Shown: one piece after another, positions 36,925 through 49,011 of the stretch
Numbering within the stretch: position 1 is the first letter of the stretch
How the letters are laid out: every line of letters begins with the position of its first letter
Assembly (NCBI GenBank): GCA_015062045.1
Contig: SUVJ01000002.1
Span: 1,300-65,299 of the forward strand
DNA length: 64,000 nt
Source of the DNA: Akkermansiaceae bacterium
GTDB taxonomy: Bacteria; Verrucomicrobiota; Verrucomicrobiia; Verrucomicrobiales; Akkermansiaceae
Direction: 5' to 3'
The notes under the pieces: model-generated
What the model saw: the letters and a program-made list of their open reading frames with translations, nothing else
Database searches by the model: none
What the model was told of the DNA's origin: nothing
Program-made: the position numbers and the translations under genes

Positions 36925-38052
36925 ATGGAACCGTACAGCATGAAAAACCCGTATCCTGCTACTGTGCAGGGTGTTCGCCCCGTCACCAAACCCGGCAGTG
37001 CAAAGGAGACTATCCATATAGACTACAACCTCGGAGACTCCGGACTCACCTATGTTACGGGTGATGCCTTGGGTGTATTCCCCTGCAACGACCCCGTCTT
37101 GGTGGATGCCCTCATCGACGCCCTCGGCTTGGATGCCGCAGAGTCCGTCCCCATGCCGGATGGCACCACCGCCCCCCTGAGAGAGGCCCTCATCAACGCA
37201 TACGATATCACCTCCCTCAAAAAAGGCAACCTCACCAAGTGGAACGCCGTGGCCAACAGCGAAAAACTAACCGCTATTCTTGCAGATAAGGATGCCCTTA
37301 AAGACTACTGCTGGGGGCGAGACCTGCTCGATGTAGCACAAGATGCCGACACCACAGCCAAGTTTGAAAACGCAGCCGCTTTTGTTGCTATTCTCGGCAA
37401 ACTTACCCCGCGTCTGTACTCCATTGCCAGCAGCCCGGATGCCGTACCCGGCCAAGTTTCCCTTTGCGTGGGTGCCGTTCGTTACACCGCTCAGGAGCGC
37501 CAACGCGGTGGCGTATGCTCCACCTACATGGCAGATCGCCTCAAGGCCGGTGACAAAGTGAAGGTATTTGTTCACAGCAACAAAAACTTCCGCCTGCCCG
37601 AGGACGGCAACACCCCCATCATCATGGTGGGCCCCGGCACCGGCATTGCGCCGTTCCGTGCCTTCTGGCAGCAGCGCATGGCAGACAACGCTCCCGGCGC
37701 AAACTGGCTCTTCTTCGGCAACCCCTACAAGGCTACAGATGGCTGCTATGAGGACGAAATCGCCCCGCTTGTAGAAAGCGGCAAACTCCGTCTCTCCGTT
37801 GCATGGAGCCGCGACCAAGCTCACAAGATCTACGTGCAAAACCTCATGGAAGAAGCCAGCGCAGAGATTTGGCAATGGTTGGAAAACGGCGCCGCCGTCT
37901 ACATGTGCGGAGATGCCAACCGCATGGCTAAAGATGTGGAGAAAGCCCTGCTCTCCATCATCTCCACCCACGGCAACCGCACGGAGGAAGAGGCTGCCGA
38001 ATACCTTAAGGATATGAAAGCAGCCAAACGTTACCAGAAAGACGTTTACTAA
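36925..38052 (+). CDS. CysJ-like FAD/NADPH oxidoreductase lacking the flavodoxin domain
   Basis: PRLYSIASS, GVCSTY, MVGPGTGIAPFRAF, LFFG, AWSRDQ, MCGDANRMAKDV, RYQKDVY. Confidence 0.85.
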   Translation: MEPYSMKNPYPATVQGVRPVTKPGSAKETIHIDYNLGDSGLTYVTGDALGVFPCNDPVLVDALIDALGLDAAESVPMPDGTTAPLREALINAYDITSLKKGNLTKWNAVANSEKLTAILADKDALKDYCWGRDLLDVAQDADTTAKFENAAAFVAILGKLTPRLYSIASSPDAVPGQVSLCVGAVRYTAQERQRGGVCSTYMADRLKAGDKVKVFVHSNKNFRLPEDGNTPIIMVGPGTGIAPFRAFWQQRMADNAPGANWLFFGNPYKATDGCYEDEIAPLVESGKLRLSVAWSRDQAHKIYVQNLMEEASAEIWQWLENGAAVYMCGDANRMAKDVEKALLSIISTHGNRTEEEAAEYLKDMKAAKRYQKDVY

Positions 38053-38191: not shown

Positions 38192-39283
38192 TCAGTATTT
38201 TTCCACCACTTTCATCATGGCATCCATTTGAGCCTCGATGGATTCAACGAGGGCAATCTGGGTGCGGCAGCGGTCCAAGTTGTGCTCAGGGCGCTTGATC
38301 TTGAAGTAGGTGTCACCCTCCAGATAGTCAGTAAGGAAACGCATACCGCACTCCATGGTAAGCAGCTTACCGGAGAACGGAAGCAGCTCTTTCTCCAGCG
38401 GGGTAAGGAAGGTTGCAGCCTCGCAGTAACCCTTGGCAAGAGCCTCAAAGTACTCCATGCGCATGGTAACAAGGGAGGTATTCTTCTCATCCTCTGCAGC
38501 GGGGGATGTGGAGGTGCGAATCATGTCACCAAAGTCATACAGGGAGGAGCCCGGCATGGTGGTATCCAAGTCAATCACGCAAATGCCCTCGCCCGTTACG
38601 TCATCAAGCATCACGTTGTTGAGCTTGGTGTCGTTGTGGGTAACACGCAGGGGCAGCTCGCCACTGGCAAGGTAGTTTACAACCTTGTGGCAATCTGCCT
38701 CGCGAGAGAGGAACCAATCAATCTCCTTTTGCACGCCGGCAGCACGCCCGCAAGCATCTGCAGCCAAAGCGGCTTGGAAGTTCTTGAAGCGCTTGGTGGT
38801 GTTATGGAAATCGGGGATGGTTTCAAAGAGCGGAGCGCCGGGAAGATTGGCACCCAGTTTCTGGAAGTTACCAAAGGCACGAGCCACCTCAATGCACTGG
38901 CCCGGGTTCTCAATCATGTCGTAGGTGCGGGCTCGGTCAATGAAGGGGTATACACGCCATACATTGCCGTCTGCATCCTGAGCGTAAGGCTTGCCATCCT
39001 TAGCGTTTACGATGGTGAGGGTGCGGCGGTAGGCCTCTTTGCAGCCCTCCTCCAACAGCACGCGCAGAGCTTCATCCGTAACACGCTTCACGTTTTCCAT
39101 GAGCGGGATGGGTTGCTTGAATACGTTGCTGTTAATGCGCTGTAAGATGTAGCTTACACGCAGACCTGCCTGGTCTACGATAACACGGAAAGTGTCATTA
39201 ATATGACCGGAGCCGTAAGGAGCCCCGCAGACAAAGTCGCCACGGAGGTCAAACAGGCCGGATATGGATTTGATATCGTACAT
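38192..39283 (-). CDS. Aminoglycoside-phosphotransferase-fold sugar kinase (N-acetylhexosamine 1-kinase-like)
   Basis: GSGHINDT, ILQRIN, ETIPDFHNT, THNDTKLNN, VIDLDT, RFLTDYLEGDTYF. Confidence 0.85.
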   Translation of the reverse strand: MYDIKSISGLFDLRGDFVCGAPYGSGHINDTFRVIVDQAGLRVSYILQRINSNVFKQPIPLMENVKRVTDEALRVLLEEGCKEAYRRTLTIVNAKDGKPYAQDADGNVWRVYPFIDRARTYDMIENPGQCIEVARAFGNFQKLGANLPGAPLFETIPDFHNTTKRFKNFQAALAADACGRAAGVQKEIDWFLSREADCHKVVNYLASGELPLRVTHNDTKLNNVMLDDVTGEGICVIDLDTTMPGSSLYDFGDMIRTSTSPAAEDEKNTSLVTMRMEYFEALAKGYCEAATFLTPLEKELLPFSGKLLTMECGMRFLTDYLEGDTYFKIKRPEHNLDRCRTQIALVESIEAQMDAMMKVVEKY

Positions 39284-39296
39284 AATCTCCCAAAAA

Positions 39297-40205
39297 TTAA
39301 CCGAGTTTGGCGGGATACACACCATCCTCTACCAGCTTGGCAATGCTCTCTACCACAGCGGGTTTATCGCTCGGGTAGGTAACACCCAACCAGTTAGCGG
39401 TAGTCTTGATAACGCTGCAATCCGCCTTGCCGTTGTGAATCAGTTCATCCACAACAGTGGGTATGTAGCACTCGCTCTTCAGCTCTGCACCGTGCTCAGC
39501 CATGAAGTGAGTGAAGTGCGCCTGAATGCGGGAAATGAAGCTGGCGGGGAATACCCAGAAGTTCATGGAAACAAGCTCCTCGGGGTCAACGGGCTTACGC
39601 TCACCGGAGAGGCTATCGCCACGGCAAACGCCGTCTTCCTCCATCTTAATCTTGGTGTACTCTTCCACGCTGTCCAAGTAGCCATCCTTAATACCACAGA
39701 TACCGCGGTTTACATCACCGTGGTCGCTGAGGGTGTTCTTGAGGGGATAGCCAATCATGCCGTAGTGCTCCTTGCAGGGGCAGCCCTGCTCAGCGGTCAG
39801 GAACTCGGCAGCCTTCACAAAAGCATCTGCACCGTAGAAGTCATCGGCATTCACCACGCCGAACGGCTCCTTAACAACATTGCGGGCGGCAAGCAAAGCG
39901 TGTGCCGTTCCCCAGGGTTTTACACGACCCTCCGGCACGCTGTACCCCTCGGGCAGGTCATCCAAGCACTGGAATGCGTAGTCTACCTCAATCTTGTCGG
40001 CAAAGCGAGCACCGACCTGGCTCTTAAAGGCCTCCTCAAAATCCTTGCGGATGATGAACACCACCTTACCGAAACCGGCACGAATGGCATCATACACGGA
40101 GTAATCAAGAATAACTTCACCATTGGGCCCCATGGGGTCCAGCTGCTTAAGGCCACCGTAACGGCTGCCCATACCTGCTGCGAGAACAAGAAGTGTAGGT
40201 TTCAT
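39297..40205 (-). CDS. Sugar-phosphate nucleotidyltransferase
   Basis: LAAGMGSRYGGLKQ, KPWGTAHA, NADDFYG, SMNFW. Confidence 0.88.
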   Translation of the reverse strand: MKPTLLVLAAGMGSRYGGLKQLDPMGPNGEVILDYSVYDAIRAGFGKVVFIIRKDFEEAFKSQVGARFADKIEVDYAFQCLDDLPEGYSVPEGRVKPWGTAHALLAARNVVKEPFGVVNADDFYGADAFVKAAEFLTAEQGCPCKEHYGMIGYPLKNTLSDHGDVNRGICGIKDGYLDSVEEYTKIKMEEDGVCRGDSLSGERKPVDPEELVSMNFWVFPASFISRIQAHFTHFMAEHGAELKSECYIPTVVDELIHNGKADCSVIKTTANWLGVTYPSDKPAVVESIAKLVEDGVYPAKLG

Positions 40206-40236
40206 AATAAAAGTGTAGTACTATCGGTACGCACTT

Positions 40237-40265
40237 ATTCTACCTGTTCCTGTAGAACATTGCAA
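40237..40265 (-). promoter_or_regulatory. Sigma70-type promoter
   Basis: Minus strand tttttgc-TTGCAA-N17-TAGAAT. Confidence 0.7.
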
Positions 40266-40267
40266 GC

Positions 40268-40311
40268 AAAAAGCGCACGAAACAGGGTGATTTTCACCGT
40301 TTCGTGCGCTT
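40268..40311 (-). terminator. Terminator, probably the native metH terminator
   Basis: AAGCGCACGAAAC/GTTTCGTGCGCTT stem plus a GGTGA/TCACC extension; U-tract on the minus strand; 20 nt downstream of the displaced metH stop. Confidence 0.75.
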
Positions 40312-40330
40312 AATCATCACGCCGTCAGCG

Positions 40331-40468
40331 TTAAACCGTCAACTTATGCCCGGAGCGGGATGCATAATCGGCGCGTTGGTCATCGCCGATGGGGCCTACG
40401 GCAAAGTAGCGAGCCTCGGGGTGATTGAAGACAAGCGCACAGATGGCAGAGGTGGGTTGCATCATGCA
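40331..40468 (-). repeat. Displaced duplicate of the metH 3' end (att junction)
   Basis: Encodes [45 protein letters not shown]. 13 mismatches in 132 nt and no indels versus 44802-44933. Confidence 0.92.
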
Positions 40469-40473
40469 GGACT

Positions 40474-42159
40474 TCATTTAGCTCCAGCAACTTTCAACAA
40501 TTTAACTATCTCAACATGTCCTTTCTCTTTTGCTACGGACAAGGGAGTCTCCTCTCCTGTACTTTTATTAACATCGATTTCAGGAACCTCTAATAATGCC
40601 TTAACAACTTCAATATGCCCATTCTCGGCGGCCCATTTCAAAGGTGTCCCATTTTGACCAATATATATACCACTAATACCTTTATTAACGTCTATTTCAG
40701 GTACAGTTAATAACAATTTAACTATCTCAAGATATCCTCTCTGAGCTGCAGCCTCCAAAGGTGTTATACTGTTTTGCATTCCGTATCTCAATTTGTCCCC
40801 TTCATTCACGTCTATGCCTGGTACATTGAGCAAAACTTCTACAGTTGCGACATCATTACTAATTACAGCTTTTTGCAATAAGTTCTTAGATTTAACCCCT
40901 GCATTTAATAGAGCCTGTACAATTTGTGAGTGTCCGTGCCACGCAGCGTAATCCAGAGAATTCCATTTTCCATCGTATTTACCTGATATCGCTCCATTAT
41001 TTGAAGAACCGGCAGCAATAAAAGCCATAATACACTCTAACGGTAAATGTTTTTTGCAATCCCCTTTATCATGCCACAAAAAATATATACTTAGAACAAA
41101 ATCATAATCTTTTATTTTTTTCTGGCCATCTTTACACAATTTGTAATTATATAAAAACTGTTCAGATTCCTTTCTATACGAATCATCAATATAGTTTTCA
41201 TACGGATTAATTTTGAATGCAGCTTCACTTTGCGCAAAGTTGATTCTCTCGCGTACCACCCCAGCAGCATACGGATCTATAATCTCATAGCGCAAAAGAA
41301 GTTGAACAGCCTCATCAGTTGAGATAATCTCTATGCATCCTGCATCTTTCAACAGCGCTCTCATTTCTGAAGAAGAGGCAAGCTTTAATAATTCTCCCCC
41401 CTTAGCCGGGTTTGTAGAGACCGAACTTGCTTCAAAAAACTTCCTTGCCAAATTGACATTATTCTGACGAACAGCCAATTCTAATACTTCGTCGGGAGCA
41501 CCTAACGTAGCACCGGCATTCTCCAACAACGCAATAGCCTCATCATTGTTATCTCTTGTTGCCAAATACAAAGGAGTAACACCCTCACAATTTTTAACAT
41601 TTGGCATTGCATTAGTCTGTATCAATAATTTTGCTATTCGTAAATTATTTCTACTTATTGCGTAGTGCAATACAGTATTTCCGTTTGAGTCTTTTTCATC
41701 AATATTAACGTTTTTAGTTAATAAAAATTTTACCATCTCTGTTCTAGCATTTTCAACGGCAAAAAACAAAGCGTTCTTACCTTTATCATTTTCAGCGCCA
41801 AGGTTACCTCCTTTTTTTAATAGATTTTCAACAATTTCAGTATTTCCTTCAGCAGACGCCGCCATGATTGCCGTATTACCGTGCATATCTTTTGCGTTAG
41901 CATCAGCTCCGGCTGCCAACAATAAATTAACTCTTTTAATACTACCCTTGCTGGCAGATGTAAGCAATTGCTCATCATACTGCAAAACAGATATACCTAA
42001 TTCAGCTAACTCCTTTTTTGCTAATCGCTTCTCCTTTTCTTCTTCGGAAAGAGAAGCAAATTCTTCCATTGCTAGTCTCTTTTCTTCTTGAGATTCACAA
42101 GAAATCAAAAAGAAGCAACTCGAGATAACACAAAATTGACGAACAAAGTTTTTATTCAT
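40474..42159 (-). CDS. Ankyrin-repeat lipoprotein
   Basis: Lipobox LISC; two ankyrin blocks (GNTAIMAA, GNTVLHYA, GVTPLYLA; TPLEAAAQRGYLEIVKLLL, TPLKWAAENGH). Confidence 0.9.
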   Translation of the reverse strand: MNKNFVRQFCVISSCFFLISCESQEEKRLAMEEFASLSEEEKEKRLAKKELAELGISVLQYDEQLLTSASKGSIKRVNLLLAAGADANAKDMHGNTAIMAASAEGNTEIVENLLKKGGNLGAENDKGKNALFFAVENARTEMVKFLLTKNVNIDEKDSNGNTVLHYAISRNNLRIAKLLIQTNAMPNVKNCEGVTPLYLATRDNNDEAIALLENAGATLGAPDEVLELAVRQNNVNLARKFFEASSVSTNPAKGGELLKLASSSEMRALLKDAGCIEIISTDEAVQLLLRYEIIDPYAAGVVRERINFAQSEAAFKINPYENYIDDSYRKESEQFLYNYKLCKDGQKKIKDYDFVLSIYFLWHDKGDCKKHLPLECIMAFIAAGSSNNGAISGKYDGKWNSLDYAAWHGHSQIVQALLNAGVKSKNLLQKAVISNDVATVEVLLNVPGIDVNEGDKLRYGMQNSITPLEAAAQRGYLEIVKLLLTVPEIDVNKGISGIYIGQNGTPLKWAAENGHIEVVKALLEVPEIDVNKSTGEETPLSVAKEKGHVEIVKLLKVAGAK

Positions 42160-42190
42160 ATTCTTATATTAAAGTTATCTATTTACTCTT

Positions 42191-43528
42191 TTATTTTTTA
42201 ACGGCATTCTTCAACAAGTTGGCACATTCTCCCCTTGCCACATCAAGAGGTTTTTCCCCATCACTATTTACTCTATTTACAGAAACGCCGGGAACAGACA
42301 GAAGTGTTTTGACACACTCAACATGACCATTTTGGGCAGCGAGGAATAGAGCAGTGTTTCCATCATAAGAAGAGATATTAACATCAATACCCGATTGCGC
42401 GACCAATAATTGGATGCATTCATTCCTTCCATTTGCAGCCGCACATAACAGAGGCATCCCTGCATTTACATTTATAGAAGGAGATGACAATAATTCACGA
42501 ACACACTCCGTATGACCATTTGAAACAGCTAAACTTAAAGCGGTATTATTCATATTACTTTTATTAACACTAACTCTCGAATCAGCAAGCAGTATACGAA
42601 CACACTCGGCATGGCCACGAGCCGCAGCGCAGCACAAGGGAGGATACGCAGCAACTTGAGGAGCAGAAGAGGCAATAAAGTTACTCATAGTATCTGAAAG
42701 ATTTACATCCACCCCTGGAGCAGCCAAAAGTAGACGAACAATTTCCGCATGACCTCTAGCAGCAGCAATATTCAAAGCAAAATGTCTATTCACATCAATT
42801 TTTAATGATGATTCTAACAACAATTTTACTGATTCGGTATCACCATTATTAACGGCAGTGCTTAAAATTGAATCATCACATTGATTTCTGTTAACCTCTG
42901 CATCGAGCAAAAGGCGAAGCAAACTATGATTTTTTTCTTTTACAGCATAAGTTAATTCTCTACCATAAGCTGATGGAGGGATGCCTCTATTAGCAAGTTC
43001 GGTTCGGGCTTTTCCTTTAGCTGATAGCAATTGAGCTTTTCTTTCAGCAGCAAGACGTTCTTGCTTCGCTTTTTCCTCTTTCTTTAGTCTTTCTTGTTTT
43101 TCTCTTTCAGCAGTAATCTCTGCACCTAACTCAGCCATAGGTGCTAACTTTTCAAGTTGATTTTCCTTTTCAGAAATTTTCTCATATAATTCATCTATGA
43201 GATTTTGTTTTTCTGTTATTTCTCCATTTTTGGATTCTACAATGGCGCGTTGATTGGAAACTTCAATATTCAATTCATCACACTTACCGAGAAGGATAGA
43301 ATTATCTTGTATTTTTTCTGCAATTTGCTGTTTCAGAGATTCTATTTGTAATGTTTGTAATTTCTCAGCTTCCGTAAAACAAGAATGCTGTATTAATAGA
43401 GCTGAGGAAAAAATTGCCAATGGGACAACACATGCACTGGCCCATATAACGATTCTTTTTTTAGAGCGCTTAAGGGGTGATATAGCCGCATTGCGTTGAA
43501 TATTATTTTCAGATTTATTATCAGTCAT
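42191..43528 (-). CDS. Membrane-anchored coiled-coil plus ankyrin-repeat protein
   Basis: TM segment IVIWASACVVPLAIFSSALLI; E/K/Q-rich coiled coil; ankyrin repeats (ALNIAAARGH, PPLCCAAARGH, TALFLAAQNGH). Confidence 0.9.
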   Translation of the reverse strand: MTDNKSENNIQRNAAISPLKRSKKRIVIWASACVVPLAIFSSALLIQHSCFTEAEKLQTLQIESLKQQIAEKIQDNSILLGKCDELNIEVSNQRAIVESKNGEITEKQNLIDELYEKISEKENQLEKLAPMAELGAEITAEREKQERLKKEEKAKQERLAAERKAQLLSAKGKARTELANRGIPPSAYGRELTYAVKEKNHSLLRLLLDAEVNRNQCDDSILSTAVNNGDTESVKLLLESSLKIDVNRHFALNIAAARGHAEIVRLLLAAPGVDVNLSDTMSNFIASSAPQVAAYPPLCCAAARGHAECVRILLADSRVSVNKSNMNNTALSLAVSNGHTECVRELLSSPSINVNAGMPLLCAAANGRNECIQLLVAQSGIDVNISSYDGNTALFLAAQNGHVECVKTLLSVPGVSVNRVNSDGEKPLDVARGECANLLKNAVKK

Positions 43529-43724
43529 AATAATTAATTTTTTAGATTTTAAATAAAACTACGATTAATACAAAATCTATATACGCTTTCATAAGCCGTA
43601 TTACACCCTACCAAAACACATGGATATTAGCGAGTTGAAATTGTAGTCATGTTTTCATGAAAAGAGCCTGCGGTTGAGTAAAAGATTTTGAAATCATTGC
43701 TATTTTCTGCTTGACTTACGGATT

Positions 43725-44723
43725 ATGAATACGCACAAACATACCGATGTAACAAAAAAGGAACAGGCTGCTATAGAAATACTCAACAGCACGGGGATAG
43801 ATATAATTGAGGCAGCACTGATTGCAAAAACAGCATTAGCAGCAGGTAGAGGACAAATTCAACGAACGATGAAATGTATACACACGGGAGAGGAAGAATT
43901 AAAACGACAGGAAAATACAGTTACATTTAAGAAAGCAGTTGAGGCAGCTCTTGCAGCCAGAAAAGACTGTCGAAACAGAACCAAACAAGATTTTCGATAT
44001 ATAACAACGAGATTTTTAAAACGCTGCAAGAACCTAGCGGAAAGAAAGATGCGCAGCTTGAAAAGCGAAGAGTGCGCTCGCTATTTGGAAGAAGCCTTTG
44101 ATACCCCCTGTCAGAAGGTAAAAGCAAGAAGAATATTAAGTGGAGTATTCAGCACAGCAATCAAGCGTGGCTGGTGTGATGAAAATCCAATAAAAAACGT
44201 AGATATTCCCAAATTACGAGAAAAAACAATAGAAATATTATCAACAAGTGAAATCGAGCAATTGTTACACAGCGCAAAAGAATATCATAATGGCAAATGC
44301 TTAGCAGCTGTCGGAATGATGATGTATGCAGGAATTCGACCTAATGAAGTATCTAGATTAAACTGGGAAGATATTGATTTAGAGAATAAAAGCATCTGCA
44401 TATTACCACAACACAGTAAAACCGGTGGTGCAAGAATGGTTACCATTTACCCATCTTTAGAAAAATTACTCAGCAGTTGCAAAGCAGTCGGTCAAATATG
44501 TCCGACACAATGGTTAAAACACTGGAGAAACCTTAGAAAACAAGCTGGGTTTCAGCATTGGCAACCGGATGTATTACGACACACCTATGCCAGTTATCAT
44601 CTGAAACACTTCCGTAACTACGCAGAATTACAATATGAAACAGGACATCGGGATAGCAACCTACTCCGCACTCGTTATGTGAACCTGAAAGGCGTACATA
44701 ACGAGGCCGATTTCTGGAGGTGA
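43725..44723 (+). CDS. Tyrosine recombinase/integrase
   Basis: YAGIRPNE (Arg), HSKTG (Lys), DVLRHTYAS, ETGH, LLRTRY (Tyr). Confidence 0.92.
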   Translation: MNTHKHTDVTKKEQAAIEILNSTGIDIIEAALIAKTALAAGRGQIQRTMKCIHTGEEELKRQENTVTFKKAVEAALAARKDCRNRTKQDFRYITTRFLKRCKNLAERKMRSLKSEECARYLEEAFDTPCQKVKARRILSGVFSTAIKRGWCDENPIKNVDIPKLREKTIEILSTSEIEQLLHSAKEYHNGKCLAAVGMMMYAGIRPNEVSRLNWEDIDLENKSICILPQHSKTGGARMVTIYPSLEKLLSSCKAVGQICPTQWLKHWRNLRKQAGFQHWQPDVLRHTYASYHLKHFRNYAELQYETGHRDSNLLRTRYVNLKGVHNEADFWR

Positions 44724-44795
44724 AATCATACACTCTTGAACCTTAAGACATGTACTTCGTTATGCCATTTTACATCATGACTCGAATTTACTTAT

Positions 44796-47700
44796 TTAGC
44801 ATGTCAACTTATGCCCGGAGCGGGATTCATAATCGGCGCGTTGGTCCTCTCCAATGGGGCCAACGGCAAAGTAACGAGCCTCGGGGTGATTGAAGATAAG
44901 CGCACAGATGGCGGAAGACGGCTGCATCATGCACGTTTCTGTAAGCGTGGTACCGGTAAGTGCGGTTGCATTCAGCAAGGAGAACACCGTGCGTTTCTCT
45001 TGATGGTCCGGCTGGGAGGGGTAGCCGCATGCCGGGCGAACCATGGCAGAGCCGGCAACGGGCCAAACTTGTTCTGCACAATCCTGAGTGCACTCAGCTA
45101 AGGCCTCTGCGAGCATATTGGCCACGGCTGCGATTAACAGCGCGTTGTAGGGGTCGTTAGCGGCATTGAGCTCTGCGCTCCACTCATCTGCACCGGTGAT
45201 AGCCATTTGCATGGCACCCACATAACCATTTTGCTCAGCCACAAAATCAGCCAAAGCCACGCGAGGTTTATCGGAGATTTTCTGCTGACGAAGGCTGTGC
45301 AACACCGTACCGCCCTGCACCTCAATATCATCCCCACAGCGAGCGGCCGGCCATATACCGAAACATGATCGGGCTTGGATGCGGTTCTCTGCTAAGGCTC
45401 GTTTCAGAATAGCCTCTGCATCAGCACGCAATTTAGTGGCCTCCTGCTTTTTCTCCTCCGTACGTGCAGCATGCATACCGAAGGTACGCAGGGTAATGCT
45501 CCAGTCCGCCTTATCAAGCAACTGCTGCCATGTAAGGGGGAAATCCGGTTGCGGGTGGAGGCAAAAACACCCGGCAGGCACACCTACGGTGAACACACCC
45601 GTGCGCTGCGGGAGCGGTTGAGCAGCGGGCGCATGCAAAGCGCGGGTGCGGGCCTCCTCCAAACTGTACAGCGGAATTTCTTTTTGTTCAAAGCCTGCGC
45701 ATAAACGAGCCTGCTCTGCTTTATATTCTGCAATAAATGCCCCCTTAGCACTACCGATGAGAGCCGTTGCAACGGGTACTATTGTGGAGGCATCTGCCGT
45801 TTGTACAACAACACCGTCCGGATAATGGGGTGCTAATTTAAGAGCCGTATGCAGCGGGCTTGTGGTGGCCCCCCCCACCAACAGCGGGGTATTCATACCC
45901 GCTGCTTGCATGGCGGCGGCCACGGCAGCCATTTCATCCAAAGACGGCGTAATCAGCCCCGAGAGAGCCACCAAATCCGCCTTTTCACGCAGGGCGCATT
46001 CTATGATTTGCTCCTTAGGCACCATTACCCCCAAATCTACCACACGGAAACCGTTGCAGGAAAGCACCACACTTACAATATTTTTACCGATGTCATGCAC
46101 ATCTCCCTTAACCGTTGCCAACACTACGGTGGCAGCCGTTTTTTGTCCGGTCTGAGCAGACTCCAACAAGGGAGTGAGCACTGCCACACTTTGCTTCATC
46201 ACGCGAGCACTCTTTACTACCTGAGGCAAGAACATTTTACCGCTACCAAACAGCTCGCCCACCTGTTTCATGCCATCCATAAGGGGGCCTTCAATCACTT
46301 GCAAGGGGGAGCCGCATACGCCCAATGCTTCCTGCGTGTCGGCCTCAATATGCTCAGTAATACCATTTACCAAAGCATGAGCCAAACGCTCTTGCACGGT
46401 AAGAGAACGCCAATCTGCCATTTTCTTGGCAACCGGCGCAGGGGCACCTGCCCCCGCTGCTTTTAGCGCGGCCTTGGCTTCCGCAAGCTCCTGAGCATAG
46501 GCAATCAGACACTCGGTAGCATCCTCCGCGCTGTTGAGCAATACCTCTTCCACCAACTTACGGCGGTGAGCAGGTATGGTATCATAATTTGTCATTAAGG
46601 CAGCATTGACAATGCATAAATCTAAGCCCCCCAAGGCAGCGTGGTGCAAGAATGCACTGTGCATGGCTTCTCTTACCGGGTTGTTACCACGGAACGAGAA
46701 GGATACATTGGAGATACCACCCGAGATATGACAAAGCGGATGACAACGAGTAATCTCTGCCGCAGCACGGAAGAAATGCAGCGCATGGTTAGCGTGCTCG
46801 GCAATGCCGGTACCTACGGTTAACACGTTGGGGTCAAAAATGATATCCTCTGCCGGGAACCCCACCTGTTGCGTCAGCAGCTCATACGCACGGTGAGCAA
46901 TAGACACACGGTCATCATAAGCACAGGCCTGGCCGTTTTCATCAAAGCCCATCACCACCACGGCTGCACCGTAACGGCGTATGATACGAGCTTGGCGCAA
47001 AAACTCTGCCTCGCCGTTCTTTAAAGAAATAGAGTTGACAATACCTTTACCCTGTACACATTGCAGGCCGGCTTCAATCACCTCCCACTTAGAGGAGTCA
47101 ATCATGCAGGGCACACGTGCAATATCCGGCTCTGCCGCTACCAGGTTCAGGAACCGAGTCATGGCAGCGGGGCCTTCAATCATGCCGTCGTCAAAGCAAA
47201 AATCCAACACGCGCGCCCCCTTTTGTACCTGAGCACGGGCAATTTCGAGTGCTTCTTCATAGTTACCCTCCCGAATCAGGCGAGCAAACTTGGGGGAGCC
47301 GGCCACGTTGCACCGCTCGCCTATGAACATGATACCCTCCCGCCGGTGGTGACGGCACGGCTCCAACCCGGAGAGATACAGCGTGCCATCCGTCTCGCGG
47401 GTGGGGATAACACGTGGGGCATACCCCTGCACCGCCTCTCGTATAGCTGCAATGTACTCGGGGGTGGTACCACAGCATCCGCCCACAAAGTTCAGCAAGC
47501 CTTGCTCCGCATAGTCTTTAAGGATTCCGGCCATGTGGTCGGCAGAGTGGGCATAGCCGCTCGGGCTGAGGGGATCCGGCAACCCGGCATTAGGGTACAT
47601 GCTGATGGCGCAATCTGCCAACTCGCTGAGTTCCTGAGCAAAAGGCAACATCAAATCCGCTCCCAGGGCGCAGTTGATACCAATGGAAAGGGGCTTGGCA

Positions 47701-48485
47701 TGCCGCACAGAATGCCAAAACGCCTCCACCGTTTGCCCGCTGAGGGTACGCCCGGCGCGGTCCGTAATGGTAAAACTAATCATTACGGGGGGTAACTCAC
47801 GTTCATCCCTCAGCTCTGAGATGGCATACAGACACGCCTTGGCATTGAGCGTATCGAAAATGGTTTCGAGCAACAGAATATCCACCCCGCCATCTGCCAA
47901 AGCCACCACCTGCTCGCGGTAGGCGCGGCGCAACTGGTCAAAATTAACGGCACGGAACCCGGGGTCATTCACATCCGGAGAGAGGGAGGCCGTTACAGCC
48001 ATGGGACCAATGGAACCCGCTACCAAACGGGGGCGCGCATCCACGGCTTCTGCAGCATCCGCCGCCTCGCGGGCAATACGGCATGCGGCTAAGTTCATTT
48101 CCCTCACCAAAGCAGCCAAGGGTGCATCTGCCAACACTCTTTCATAATAAGCTTGGTCATGCTTGGCGGCCCCTGCACGGTGAAAGAACTCATGCTGCCC
48201 AATGCAGGTGGCAGAAAAAGTGCAAGTGCTGATGATATCCGACCCGGCATCGAGATATTGACGGCACATATCTCTGATAATATCCGGGCGGGTAAGCACA
48301 AGCACATCATTATTATTTTTAAGATCTTGAGGATAAAGCGTACGGTCTGTAAATCGCTCGCCTCGGTAGTCGCTCTCCTGCAGGCAATGCTTTTGAATCA
48401 TGGTACCCTGTGCGCCATCCAGCATCAGGATACGCTGTTTCATCTCGCTCTCAAGGTACTCTCTACGTGTTTGTGCCGTGCTCAT
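44796..48485 (-). CDS. metH: Cobalamin-dependent methionine synthase
   Basis: [53 protein letters not shown]. Confidence 0.98.
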
Positions 48486-48505
48486 ATTCTGCTTTTCTCC
48501 TTCAG

Positions 48506-48534
48506 AAAAAAGGCGGCTTCACCCGGAAGCCGCC
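48506..48534 (-). terminator. Terminator between nuoA and metH
   Basis: Minus strand GGCGGCTTC-cgggt-GAAGCCGCC-TTTTTT, ending about 20 nt before the metH ATG. Confidence 0.75.
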
Positions 48535-48573
48535 ATAAAAATCTTAACTCATATCGAAGCGACACCCGCAGGA

Positions 48574-48966
48574 TTAATCGCGGGGTTTCGGGTTACGGTG
48601 CCACACAATAACACCCTTGCCCAAGGCATAAAGATATGCCACCATCAATACACCGATAAAGGCGGTCATGGCGCCGAAAGCTGCACCGTTGTTCACGACA
48701 AAATCCTTGAAACCCAGTGCCCACGGATACAGGAAAATCACCTCCAAGTCAAACACCAGGAACAAAATGGCAACCATATAGTATTTAATGGAGAAGAAAG
48801 CCGGTGCACCATCACCCTCGGGCACGTTACCACATTCATACGGAACGTCTTGAGCAGGGCGCAAACGTGCTCGACGTCCGAAAATCACACTGAGCACAAT
48901 GATCATACCGGCGAAACCGAACCCGGCGACCAACTGAATCAAAGCTGAAAAGTATTCCTGTAACAT
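48574..48966 (-). CDS. nuoA: NADH-quinone oxidoreductase subunit A
   Basis: PYECG, YYMVAILFLVFDLEVIFLYPWA; three TM segments. Confidence 0.95.
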   Translation of the reverse strand: MLQEYFSALIQLVAGFGFAGMIIVLSVIFGRRARLRPAQDVPYECGNVPEGDGAPAFFSIKYYMVAILFLVFDLEVIFLYPWALGFKDFVVNNGAAFGAMTAFIGVLMVAYLYALGKGVIVWHRNPKPRD

Positions 48967-48982
48967 GGCTGTAACGGAGCAT

Positions 48983-49011
48983 CTTATAGCACTAATTTAT
49001 GGTTTTGTCAA
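48983..49011 (-). promoter_or_regulatory. Sigma70-type promoter of nuoA
   Basis: Minus strand ttttgc-TTGACA-N17-TATAAG. Confidence 0.8.

Follow-up and report, generated by a model that had tools for sequence, protein, structure and literature searches.

A 4,465-bp integrative island probably inserted by Campbell-type recombination at the 3' end of metH in uncultured herbivore-gut Akkermansia

Introduction

In E. coli, the e14 element and phage 21 use a tyrosine integrase that targets the 3' end of icd, and icd stays functional. Both carry a homologous icd end with mostly synonymous differences, and this copy replaces about 50 codons because the crossover takes place at the upstream edge of homology. 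Ankyrin genes, too, can be mobile cargo, as in the 'Ankyphages', phages of symbionts that carry them. Another well-described group is SGI1 and related integrative mobilizable islands, which occupy the 3' end of trmE, together with islands that encode a dusA-specific integrase (PMC8409611, PMC4482086).

Here we analyze a window, by which we mean the whole stretch of 64,000 nucleotides studied, from an uncultured herbivore-gut Akkermansia. It most probably holds a 4,465-bp integrative island that arose by Campbell-type insertion, an attP on the element having recombined with the 3' end of metH. As with e14 and icd, the 3' end of a housekeeping gene is targeted, the element brings its own copy of the gene end, and the gene is functional after insertion. 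Unlike icd, the element accounts for no more than 15 codons, of which just the last alters the protein, and the greater part of its copy, being on the wrong side of the crossover, never becomes joined to the gene. The SGI1 and dusA islands share with the metH island a tyrosine integrase, no conjugation machinery of their own, a housekeeping-gene site and variable cargo, and the integrase families share a conserved targeting geometry. SGI1-type islands are 20-40 kb long with mobilization and regulatory genes, whereas the metH island has three genes and no known helper element, and dusA islands target the 5' end, in contrast to the 3' end used here. Ankyphages resemble the metH island in that exported-type ankyrin-repeat proteins are mobile-element cargo in a host-associated bacterium, but the island has no virion or other phage genes. 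Literature searches for Akkermansia ankyrin islands or for metH as an attB found none, the term 'metH' mostly matching 'method' and 'meth'.

Results

The window contains the 3' end of metH twice, as a direct repeat at 40338-40468 and 44803-44933 that spans 131 nt with 12 mismatches, no indels and a spacing of 4465. This duplication had been reported in a first-pass annotation of the DNA and is confirmed. With the last codon counted, 13 of 45 codons differ between the copies, eight synonymously and five not (S/T, I/V, E/D, E/A and C/V), so that the mostly synonymous divergence and the C/V last residue described earlier also hold. Homology starts abruptly, as had been noted, at an 11-mer of the TGCAT-C-ATGCA type, the near-palindrome TGCATCATGCA (40458-40468 and 44923-44933). 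GC content, about 55% outside, drops to 31-42% precisely between the repeats, and the enclosed segment has 36% GC in a 55%-GC genome. The only genes between the repeats are a 332-aa PF00589 integrase and two ankyrin-repeat ORFs, and the integrase gene ends 80 nt from the proximal copy. Flanking direct repeats with an integrase adjoining one of them are the arrangement of a Campbell-type island. An assembly or binning artefact might be suspected, given that the organism is metagenome-derived and repeats can misjoin contigs, and a local tandem duplication of the metH end, independent of the integrase, would also leave a repeat. However, 23 independent metagenome contigs, obtained from independent samples with independent assemblers, show the same arrangement, as do Logan unitigs of several runs, which excludes misassembly. 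Single 4815-nt Logan unitigs cross both repeats with zero differences, and the GC break coincides exactly with the repeat edges. Taken as a whole, an artefact or a local tandem duplication is extremely improbable.

The integrase gene, int (43725..44723, plus strand, 38% GC), encodes a tyrosine recombinase of 332 aa that matches PF00589 (E = 6e-15; 55.8 bits against a cut-off of 27.1, residues 172-321) and the PHROG_1 integrase (E = 1.5e-32). The reading frame is intact. R205, K232, R285, H286, H308 and Y318 occupy invariant columns in an alignment of 25 family members, and from their motif positions we take them to be the R-K-(H)-R-H-Y catalytic residues. Xer-like scores are far below family cut-offs, indicating only generic kinship with the integrases of SGI1 and dusA islands. 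Across a 196-nt divergent intergenic region (43529..43724) without an Xis-like ORF lie the two cargo genes, both on the minus strand. Cargo gene 1 (42191..43528) encodes a 445-aa ankyrin-repeat protein (Ank_2 and Ank matches, E = 1e-42). By eye, its translation begins with a hydrophobic, TM-like stretch followed by a charged repetitive region, which we read as a putative coiled coil, and the ankyrin repeats are C-terminal. Cargo gene 2 (40474..42159) encodes a 561-aa ankyrin-repeat protein (Ank_2, E = 4e-54) with a lipoprotein-type N-terminus, …FFLISC|ESQ, the lipobox being read from the translation. The distal repeat copy itself makes a 48-aa ORF, MKSCMMQPTS…KLTV by translation (40331..40477, minus strand), whose ATG overlaps the TGA of the 561-aa ankyrin gene (ATGA). 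Public assemblies annotate this region as a 44-aa gene of PF02965.

No ORF of at least 20 aa resembling Xis or another recombination directionality factor was found in 43480-43780 or elsewhere in the island. Many simple integrases function without Xis. Pfam, PHROG and NCBIfam searches matched the integrase and the ankyrin proteins only and detected no virion, conjugation or mobilization genes (relaxase, oriT, T4SS), so the island does not qualify as a prophage, ICE or IME. The earlier account of its content, an integrase and two ankyrin genes, therefore stands, with no phage, transfer or defence family matches beyond generic ankyrin ones. PADLOC returned ankyrin-repeat-level matches (PDC-M72A, 'Ankyrin' and MzaA) with no partner genes, which does not make an anti-phage defence island. 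Defence, phage and T4SS-effector readings of the ankyrin proteins were likewise rejected, the matches being repeat-level only and far below family cut-offs. A search for RNA sequencing runs with the island found none.

Five contigs of close relatives (L010 and L164-L167) carry an unoccupied site. In each, metH leads straight into NTP-transferase and APH genes, with a gap of about 125 nt between metH and the NTP-transferase gene and collinear flanks, and a sister species (L091) has the same uninterrupted arrangement. These empty attB sites bear out the proposal that metH is the attachment site of an integrative element. L010 has 97% nt identity in metH and an identical NTP-transferase protein; L164-L167 have about 90% nt identity in metH and 96% downstream. 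The metH tail of L164-L167 ends in ...GACGGTTTAA, directly followed by the native terminator, and the protein tail terminates in KLTV. A site-by-site table shows that all empty sites have the proximal letter at diagnostic positions 12, 15, 16, 37, 81, 87 and 107 of the tail. Their sole agreement with the distal copy is at positions 132-135, where L164-L167 have the distal letters. In addition, the proximal repeat is 100% identical to L010 over its first 83 nt.

Two sites bracket the crossover: the last at which the proximal copy is native and the distal copy differs (position 87, or 44847), and the first at which the distal copy is native and the proximal copy differs (position 132, or 44802). 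Because the proximal copy is native to position 87, at the sites where the empty sites agree, and the distal copy is native at 132-135, this comparison places the crossover within the 44-nt block GACCAACGCGCCGATTATGAATCCCGCTCCGGGCATAAGTTGAC (44803..44846, minus strand; distal counterpart 40338-40381), bracketed to that length only, and not at the TGCATCATGCA edge. The lone mismatch in the block (44827 / 40362) varies by sample, the distal copy of L002 and L008 having the proximal letter. By the same comparison, the proximal repeat (44803..44933, minus strand, attL side) is native metH from the TGCATGATGCA edge to the crossover, and the distal repeat (40338..40468, minus strand, attR side) is chimeric, joining an element-borne mimic of the metH tail to the native end of metH. 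A crossover inside a 43-nt node of the X11 assembly graph was considered and ruled out, as the DNA of L164-L167 brackets it further downstream. The simple model does not account for L010, whose last 17 codons differ and whose 3' UTR is AT-rich.

Protein sequences give a similar picture. In the 90% cluster of MetH, 14 of the 14 listed full-length members encode GEDQ and YES/YET, the proximal type, and 12 of these 14 have PSS...ALIF, the exceptions being P0136 (ALVF) and P0137 (PAS). Their ends are KLTV, KLTM or KLTC. An empty site ending in QPTSAICALVF...KLTV had been predicted; KLTV and the distal terminator are indeed native, but the tail is otherwise of the proximal type and not PTS/ALVF. 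Relatives that lack the insert and end in KLTC would have spoken against the earlier reading, and we looked for them: KLTC is absent from every empty site examined. Scanning metagenome contigs for MetH C-termini yielded one close relative (L091), the rest being distant metH of about 44% identity, and a 45-aa distal-tail query retrieved three small ORFs and no full-length MetH.

The element-borne mimic, of the PTS/ALVF/GDD type, covers 87 nt (40382..40468, minus strand), differs from all empty sites at positions 12, 15, 16, 37, 81 and 87, and lies 5' of the crossover, unjoined to metH. Run X20 appears to have the same element in another host background, with about 99% identity in int and about 91% in ank; the host metH there has 20 differences in 121 nt. 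Over 44803-44917 (115 nt) the X20 repeat is exact, at a node depth twice that of the arms, and it carries the window's distal-type letters at 44847, 44850, 44853, 44862, 44874 and 44897. At positions 37-87, mimic letters thus occur in both X20 repeat copies, in a graph with two arms in and two out that cannot be phased. Composed of unitigs with an unphased repeat node, the X20 graph could equally represent attB plus free attP. In X11 there is one metH-side unitig, of the proximal type, at a depth of 57, compared with 28 for the int side and 15.5 for the ank side; this suggests co-existing empty alleles, with the depths taken qualitatively only because their bookkeeping does not balance. No circular attP junction or excision joint was seen in eight runs of assembled unitigs, which drop rare variants.

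These data bear on a second explanation, in which the crossover took place at the TGCATCATGCA edge. All 44 codons of the proximal tail would then belong to the element and repair metH, and the distal copy would in its entirety be the native tail, displaced. Such a layout is classical for elements at gene 3' ends and agrees with the abrupt start of homology at the near-palindrome. A second element type, with restriction-modification cargo (L160-L162), also has a metH fragment starting from the same codon position. However, the explanation needs three coincidences: that a proximal tail brought in by the element should be 100% identical over 83 nt to the native tail of L010, that a native distal tail should depart from all empty sites at six diagnostic positions, and that this distal type should turn up again in the two repeat copies of what appears to be the same element in another host. 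We consider it very unlikely. The first-pass annotation had placed the crossover at this edge, which the empty sites contradict, as they match the proximal copy at diagnostic positions through 107. It had further held that the whole proximal tail is element-borne and repairs metH, and that selection kept this tail functional. Neither claim survives, because the element contributes only the last codon, the stop and the 3' UTR, and the empty sites show that metH keeps its own tail. On the far side of a crossover inside the 44-nt block, the metH-tail mimic repairs nothing, and the X20 repeat (unitigs with an unphased node) suggests that it travels with the element.

The metH gene (44796..48485, minus strand) is intact and encodes a cobalamin-dependent methionine synthase of 1229 aa with five Pfam domains over the whole protein. 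Comparison with empty sites shows that its last codon (TGC), stop codon and 3' UTR are element-derived, and the island thus changes MetH by one residue, Val1229 to Cys. Gene-end restoration of the icd/e14 type does not apply, since up to position 107 of 131 the proximal copy has native letters at the sites where the empty sites agree. Insertion has cost metH its own terminator and left it convergent with int. The 72-nt, AT-rich spacer between the two stop codons (44724..44795) shows no terminator-like hairpin by folding of both strands. The native metH terminator, a GC-rich hairpin with a U-run (40266..40311, minus strand; -31.6 kcal/mol, z = -3.6), has shifted 4.5 kb and now lies behind the ankyrin operon, which corroborates the strong terminator noted earlier after the distal copy. 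Its sequence is identical behind metH in the empty sites L164-L166 and has one substitution in L167.

The integrase family has more than 500 copies in Akkermansia MAGs, with at least eight in one genome. Its geometry is constant: int converges with a housekeeping gene or tRNA-Ser, and its stop and the 3' end of that gene are 8-110 nt apart. A comparison of the right flank of int with the 10 kb to its left revealed flanking direct repeats of 28-115 nt at 10 of the best 80 loci; the remaining 70 may have short cores or islands longer than the flank searched. Among these best 80 of more than 500 loci none is at metH, the targets being 3' ends of other housekeeping genes. The expected association of integrase and metH therefore holds in part, since near-identical copies are always at metH but homologues of 55-67% identity, among the best 80, never are. 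Targeting of tRNA genes does not describe the family, a tRNA (Ser-GCT) standing beside int in only 2 of 80 loci. GC content did not delimit the 80 related islands, whose integrases match their hosts in GC richness. The sister islands L074, L042, L044, L034/L036, L061, L086 and L168 (int identity 55-67%) resemble the metH island in having int convergent with a housekeeping gene 3' end and a small cargo that encodes secreted or surface proteins, among them a homologue of the ankyrin lipoprotein. In L074 the flanking direct repeat spans 53 nt, the last 17 codons of a malic-enzyme gene. They differ in their targets (malic enzyme, RuvX, TpiA, TatD, UvrD-like helicases, RimO/MiaB-like, tRNA-Ser and aldehyde dehydrogenase), in their host-like GC of 52-67% as against 36-38% in the metH island, and, for some, in giant PEP-CTERM proteins or an FtsK/SpoIIIE translocase. 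Since int with ankyrin cargo recurs at other target genes (L074, L042 and L044), the idea of a unique ankyrin-only element is not tenable.

Discussion

Circular DNA could also have entered metH by RecA-dependent homologous recombination through the 131-nt homology, with the integrase uninvolved and the island possibly now an immobile remnant. The crossover does lie in the longest near-perfect stretch (44 nt, one mismatch), which homologous recombination favours, and no Xis gene, circle or transfer genes were found. On the other hand, the int frame is intact with conserved catalytic residues, and more than 500 homologues share the tail-to-tail geometry at many genes, several of them with flanking repeats of 28-53 nt, a length at which homologous recombination is inefficient. 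The same element also appears to be present in a second host background (X20, unphased). We find the RecA route unlikely and favor integrase-mediated insertion, in which the attP of a circular element would recombine with the metH 3' end inside the 44-nt block and the 332-aa recombinase would catalyze the exchange. The 87-nt mimic may have been captured by the element from the metH of an earlier host, and gene conversion with the resident copy, rather than selection for function, may have kept it metH-like. Capture and conversion could also account for the surplus of synonymous differences, since the comparison is then one of two functional orthologues. A duplicated gene tail with mostly synonymous differences is no proof of gene repair or of selection on the element copy. 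The ankyrin lipoprotein and the membrane-anchored ankyrin protein would be the envelope-exposed, selected payload, and the island, having no transfer genes, presumably depends on outside help to move between cells.

It is doubtful, but conceivable, that the mimic is a working part of the element, or that the integrase family is a docking system for secreted proteins. The mimic might be an extended homology arm, refreshed by gene conversion, that gives access to diverged Akkermansia metH alleles, or might encode a 48-aa peptide whose translation is coupled (ATGA) to that of the ankyrin lipoprotein gene. Because the metH terminator is lost on insertion, metH transcription may also run antisense into int, which, if true, would make the stability of the island depend on the cell's methionine and B12 status. 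The more than 500 integrases would, on the docking idea, represent lineage-specific docking of secreted-protein cassettes (ankyrin, PEP-CTERM) at housekeeping gene ends in herbivore-gut Akkermansia.

Our results document metH as an integration site in Akkermansia for at least two kinds of element. They also point to an extensive and apparently undescribed radiation in herbivore-gut Akkermansia: small integrase islands, several of them in a genome, that dock at the 3' ends of different housekeeping genes with exported ankyrin or PEP-CTERM proteins as cargo. In a genus of probiotic interest, such islands are candidate sources of differences between strains in surface and host-interaction proteins, and their integrases, each with a defined attB, could become genetic tools. 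Among the sister islands, the L074 homologue of cargo gene 2 begins much as cargo gene 2 does, with …LTSCES.

An integrase island bracketed by a duplicated metH terminus

The last 44-45 codons of metH occur twice in the window, on the minus strand, as a direct repeat of 131 nt (40338-40468 and 44803-44933) with no indels, 12 mismatches and a spacing of 4465 nt. Eight codon differences between the copies are synonymous and five non-synonymous (S/T, I/V, E/D, E/A and the final C/V), and homology sets in abruptly at TGCATCATGCA. MetH itself is intact, with 1229 aa and all five of its Pfam domains, and ends in the proximal copy, 44803-44933. GC is about 55% outside and drops to 31-42% exactly between the repeats. 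This interval holds int, encoding a 332-aa tyrosine recombinase (PF00589; 43725-44723, + strand), and two ankyrin-repeat ORFs of 445 aa (42191-43528, - strand) and 561 aa (40474-42159, - strand); ORF and profile searches between the repeats turned up neither a Xis-like ORF nor any gene of phage, transfer or defence type. The arrangement, as described in the first-pass annotation, is real: it recurs in 23 contigs from independent samples, and Logan unitigs of 4815 nt cross both repeats with 0 differences. The stretch is present in runs from faecal and gut metagenomes, of which one is bovine.

The 561-aa protein begins with a lipoprotein-type signal (...LISC|ES). In the 445-aa protein the ankyrin repeats are preceded by a hydrophobic segment at the N-terminus and a charged region that reads as coiled coil. 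Our best guess is that the cargo consists of two envelope-exposed ankyrin proteins. Identities as a Legionella Ank effector, MzaA or a PADLOC system were rejected, the matches being at repeat level only and far below cut-offs.

Empty sites and the predicted crossover

Empty sites, in which metH runs straight into an NTP-transferase gene, are present in contigs L010, L164-L167 and L091 of other genomes, upholding the proposal that metH is the attB of a real integrative island, whose activity is putative. L010, found via the neighboring NTP-transferase protein, has metH DNA 97% identical to the window's. Looking up the window MetH in its 90% cluster gave 14 full-length members, all of which encode GEDQ and YES/YET, the proximal type; 12/14 encode PSS...ALIF (P0136 has ALVF and P0137 PAS). 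Nine of the 14 end in V, two in M and three in C. L164-L167, contigs of two members ending KLTV, have the order nuoA, metH, NTP-transferase, APH, and their DNA from GACCAACGCGCC through ...TTGACGGTTTAA, together with the whole GC-rich terminator, equals the window's distal copy and downstream flank, bar one coding site. L091 comes from a sister species; its site is empty too, and its metH encodes PSS/ALIF. The MAGs behind the cluster members and the integrase homologues bear the label 'Akkermansia sp.' and come from goat, buffalo, sheep, yak, cattle and rabbit.

We tabulated site by site every position where the window's two copies differ, counted from the upstream homology edge (87 is 44847), against the empty sites. 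At positions 12, 15, 16, 37, 81, 87 and 107 all empty sites have the proximal letter, and at 132-135 (ACA TGC vs ACG GTT) L164-L167 have the distal letters. Native alleles vary among themselves at 18, 21 and 60; positions 72 and 84 are non-discriminating, as the empty sites disagree mutually or match neither copy. On this comparison the proximal copy reads as native metH to at least position 87, and probably to 107. The distal copy reads as foreign over the positions to 87, probably 107, and native at its very end. Because the empty sites match the proximal copy upstream and the distal copy at 132-135, the crossover is placed within the 44-nt block 44803-44846 / 40338-40381. This block has one mismatch, which is variable among samples; the distal copies of contigs L002 and L008 carry the proximal letter.

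With the crossover in the last 44 nt, what the element contributes is limited to the final codon (Val to Cys), the stop codon and the 3' UTR. The earlier idea that the element repairs metH with its own tail thus fails, the proximal tail being native, and selection keeping the element-borne tail functional is not needed to explain the data. Natural MetH C-termini are not conserved (KLTV, KLTM, RLPV, LPQ, QLTL, RPVPSAL), so the Val to Cys swap is unlikely to matter to the enzyme. We regard this revised anatomy as likely. In type it is an unremarkable small island, with an integrase, at a housekeeping gene's 3' end; its one unusual trait is that most of its att homology lies 5' of the crossover.

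The L010 allele (L010:885-1000) is also present in run X18. Its first 83 nt are identical to the proximal copy. After that its last 17 codons (…YETRSGHKLTM) show 12 differences, and in place of the GC-rich terminator there are about 60 nt of unrelated, AT-rich 3' UTR. An earlier element may have left this divergent tail and UTR as a scar. Comparing window 44796-49000 and 38192-40333 with L164, L167 and L091, identity to relatives steps up at the att site, which looks like a recombination breakpoint. metH and nuoA are 87-93% identical to L164, and the terminator, NTP-transferase and APH 95-99%; L091 MetH has 85% protein identity to the window's, and its neighbors 96-99%. After APH the empty-site strains carry a restriction-modification-like pair (L164:11902-15648, L167:11944-15690), consisting of a ResIII/RE_endonuc protein of 1027 aa and an N6_N4 methyltransferase. 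At the corresponding position of the window stands a FAD/NAD-binding reductase gene (36925-38052). This place is another variable spot near the island.

The element-borne metH tail and evidence from other runs

An island in run X20 has int about 99% and ank about 91% identical, and the metH that it adjoins departs from the window's at 20/121 nt. The island's repeat is exact over 44803-44917, with a node depth twice that of its four arms, and has the window's distal-type letters at 44847, 44850, 44853, 44862, 44874 and 44897. Since these letters recur with the element, the distal-type stretch appears to go with the element rather than with the window's host. Both repeat copies are identical in the X20 host, and the element-borne metH tail (40382-40468) has therefore probably been kept metH-like by gene conversion, or captured from an X20-like host. 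The synonymous bias would then come from comparing two functional orthologues rather than from selection acting on the element's copy.

In run X11 the metH side is represented by one unitig of proximal type, at a depth of 57, compared with 28 on the int side and 15.5 on the ank side. This suggests that island-free alleles co-exist there; the depths balance too poorly to say more. Neither a circle nor a precise excision joint turned up among the assembled contigs of the runs examined. In runs X1-X3, compared over window 44808-44997, a second Akkermansia strain co-occurs at a depth of about 19; for 2 kb after its metH tail, …SGHLPQ*, the sequence does not resemble the window.

Another, larger element carries at its end a metH fragment (L160:8064-8258, L161:5277-5471, L162:1597-1791), beginning at the codon (…ATCATGCAGCC) where the window's distal copy also begins; metH is therefore used by at least two kinds of element. 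Among the cargo of this second element are a ResIII helicase and an N6/N4 DNA methyltransferase; its integrase is not seen on contigs L160-L162, which begin inside the element.

Consequences of insertion, partly predicted

After the distal copy lies a hairpin of -31.6 kcal/mol with a U-run (z = -3.6), and no comparable hairpin lies between the metH and int stop codons. Insertion has moved the native metH terminator 4.5 kb, to behind the ankyrin operon, and leaves metH without a recognisable terminator, convergent with int across 72 nt. Read-through from metH could produce RNA antisense to int. The distal copy forms a 48-aa ORF, MKSCMMQPTS…KLTV (40331-40477, - strand), for which public assemblies have a 44-aa PF02965 gene. 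The ATG of this ORF and the TGA of the 561-aa ankyrin gene overlap (ATGA), a layout typical of translational coupling.

The integrase family

A database search returned 1062 int homologues, the best besides near-identical copies having 67% identity, and a scan of GTDB genomes confirmed 511 loci; at least eight come from MAG JAZLDM. This large Akkermansia family is apparently undescribed in the literature. Among the best 80 of the 511 loci, 79 are labelled Akkermansia, Akkermansiaceae or Verrucomicrobiales. The remaining one, L016 (JAZUMW010000134.1), is a 3.3-kb contig binned as 'Faecousia sp.' (Firmicutes), probably a binning error. GC of these 80 homologues (L011-L090) is host-like at 52-67%, and that of the window int is 38%; by composition the island is foreign even inside its own integrase family.

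The expected association of integrase homologues with metH did not emerge: only one of the best 80 loci (L050) has metH within 10 kb, and its 53-nt repeat lies elsewhere. In 23 of these 80 a convergent ORF of at least 140 aa ends within 120 nt of the int stop, and in two further loci tRNA-Ser(GCT) occupies that place. Ten neighboring ORFs, nine from the 23-locus set plus the L074 target found via its repeat, were run against Pfam. All ten are housekeeping genes: RimO/MiaB-like, beta-CASP RNase, two UvrD-like helicases, acetyl-CoA transferase, HisA-like, TpiA, TatD, RuvX and malic enzyme. The int of P0003 (67%, one of the two closest non-identical homologues) lies tail-to-tail with an aldehyde-dehydrogenase gene (L168:1450-9014); its neighbors include four unannotated genes and one for an FtsK/SpoIIIE-family protein of 872 aa. 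A DNA-translocation function may thus be carried by some family members. That of P0007, a close homologue, faces a small unannotated ORF, not metH.

The repeat search picked up flanking repeats, 28-115 nt long, at 10 of the best 80 loci. L074 comes nearest to the window's island: there a 53-nt repeat, which duplicates the last 17 codons of a malic-enzyme gene, encloses int, a gene for a homologous ankyrin lipoprotein and one further gene. Other family members carry cargo proteins of 1100-2300 aa with PEP-CTERM-like C-terminal signals. Islands with a single giant ORF (1065-2304 aa) lie at L034:6239-9802, L036:6419-9802, L061:3055-6252 and L086:2977-9891 with direct repeats of 28-115 nt, and these ORFs end in …PEP(A/T)T(A/T)TLSLLAL…RRRRK, a PEP-CTERM-like sorting signal.
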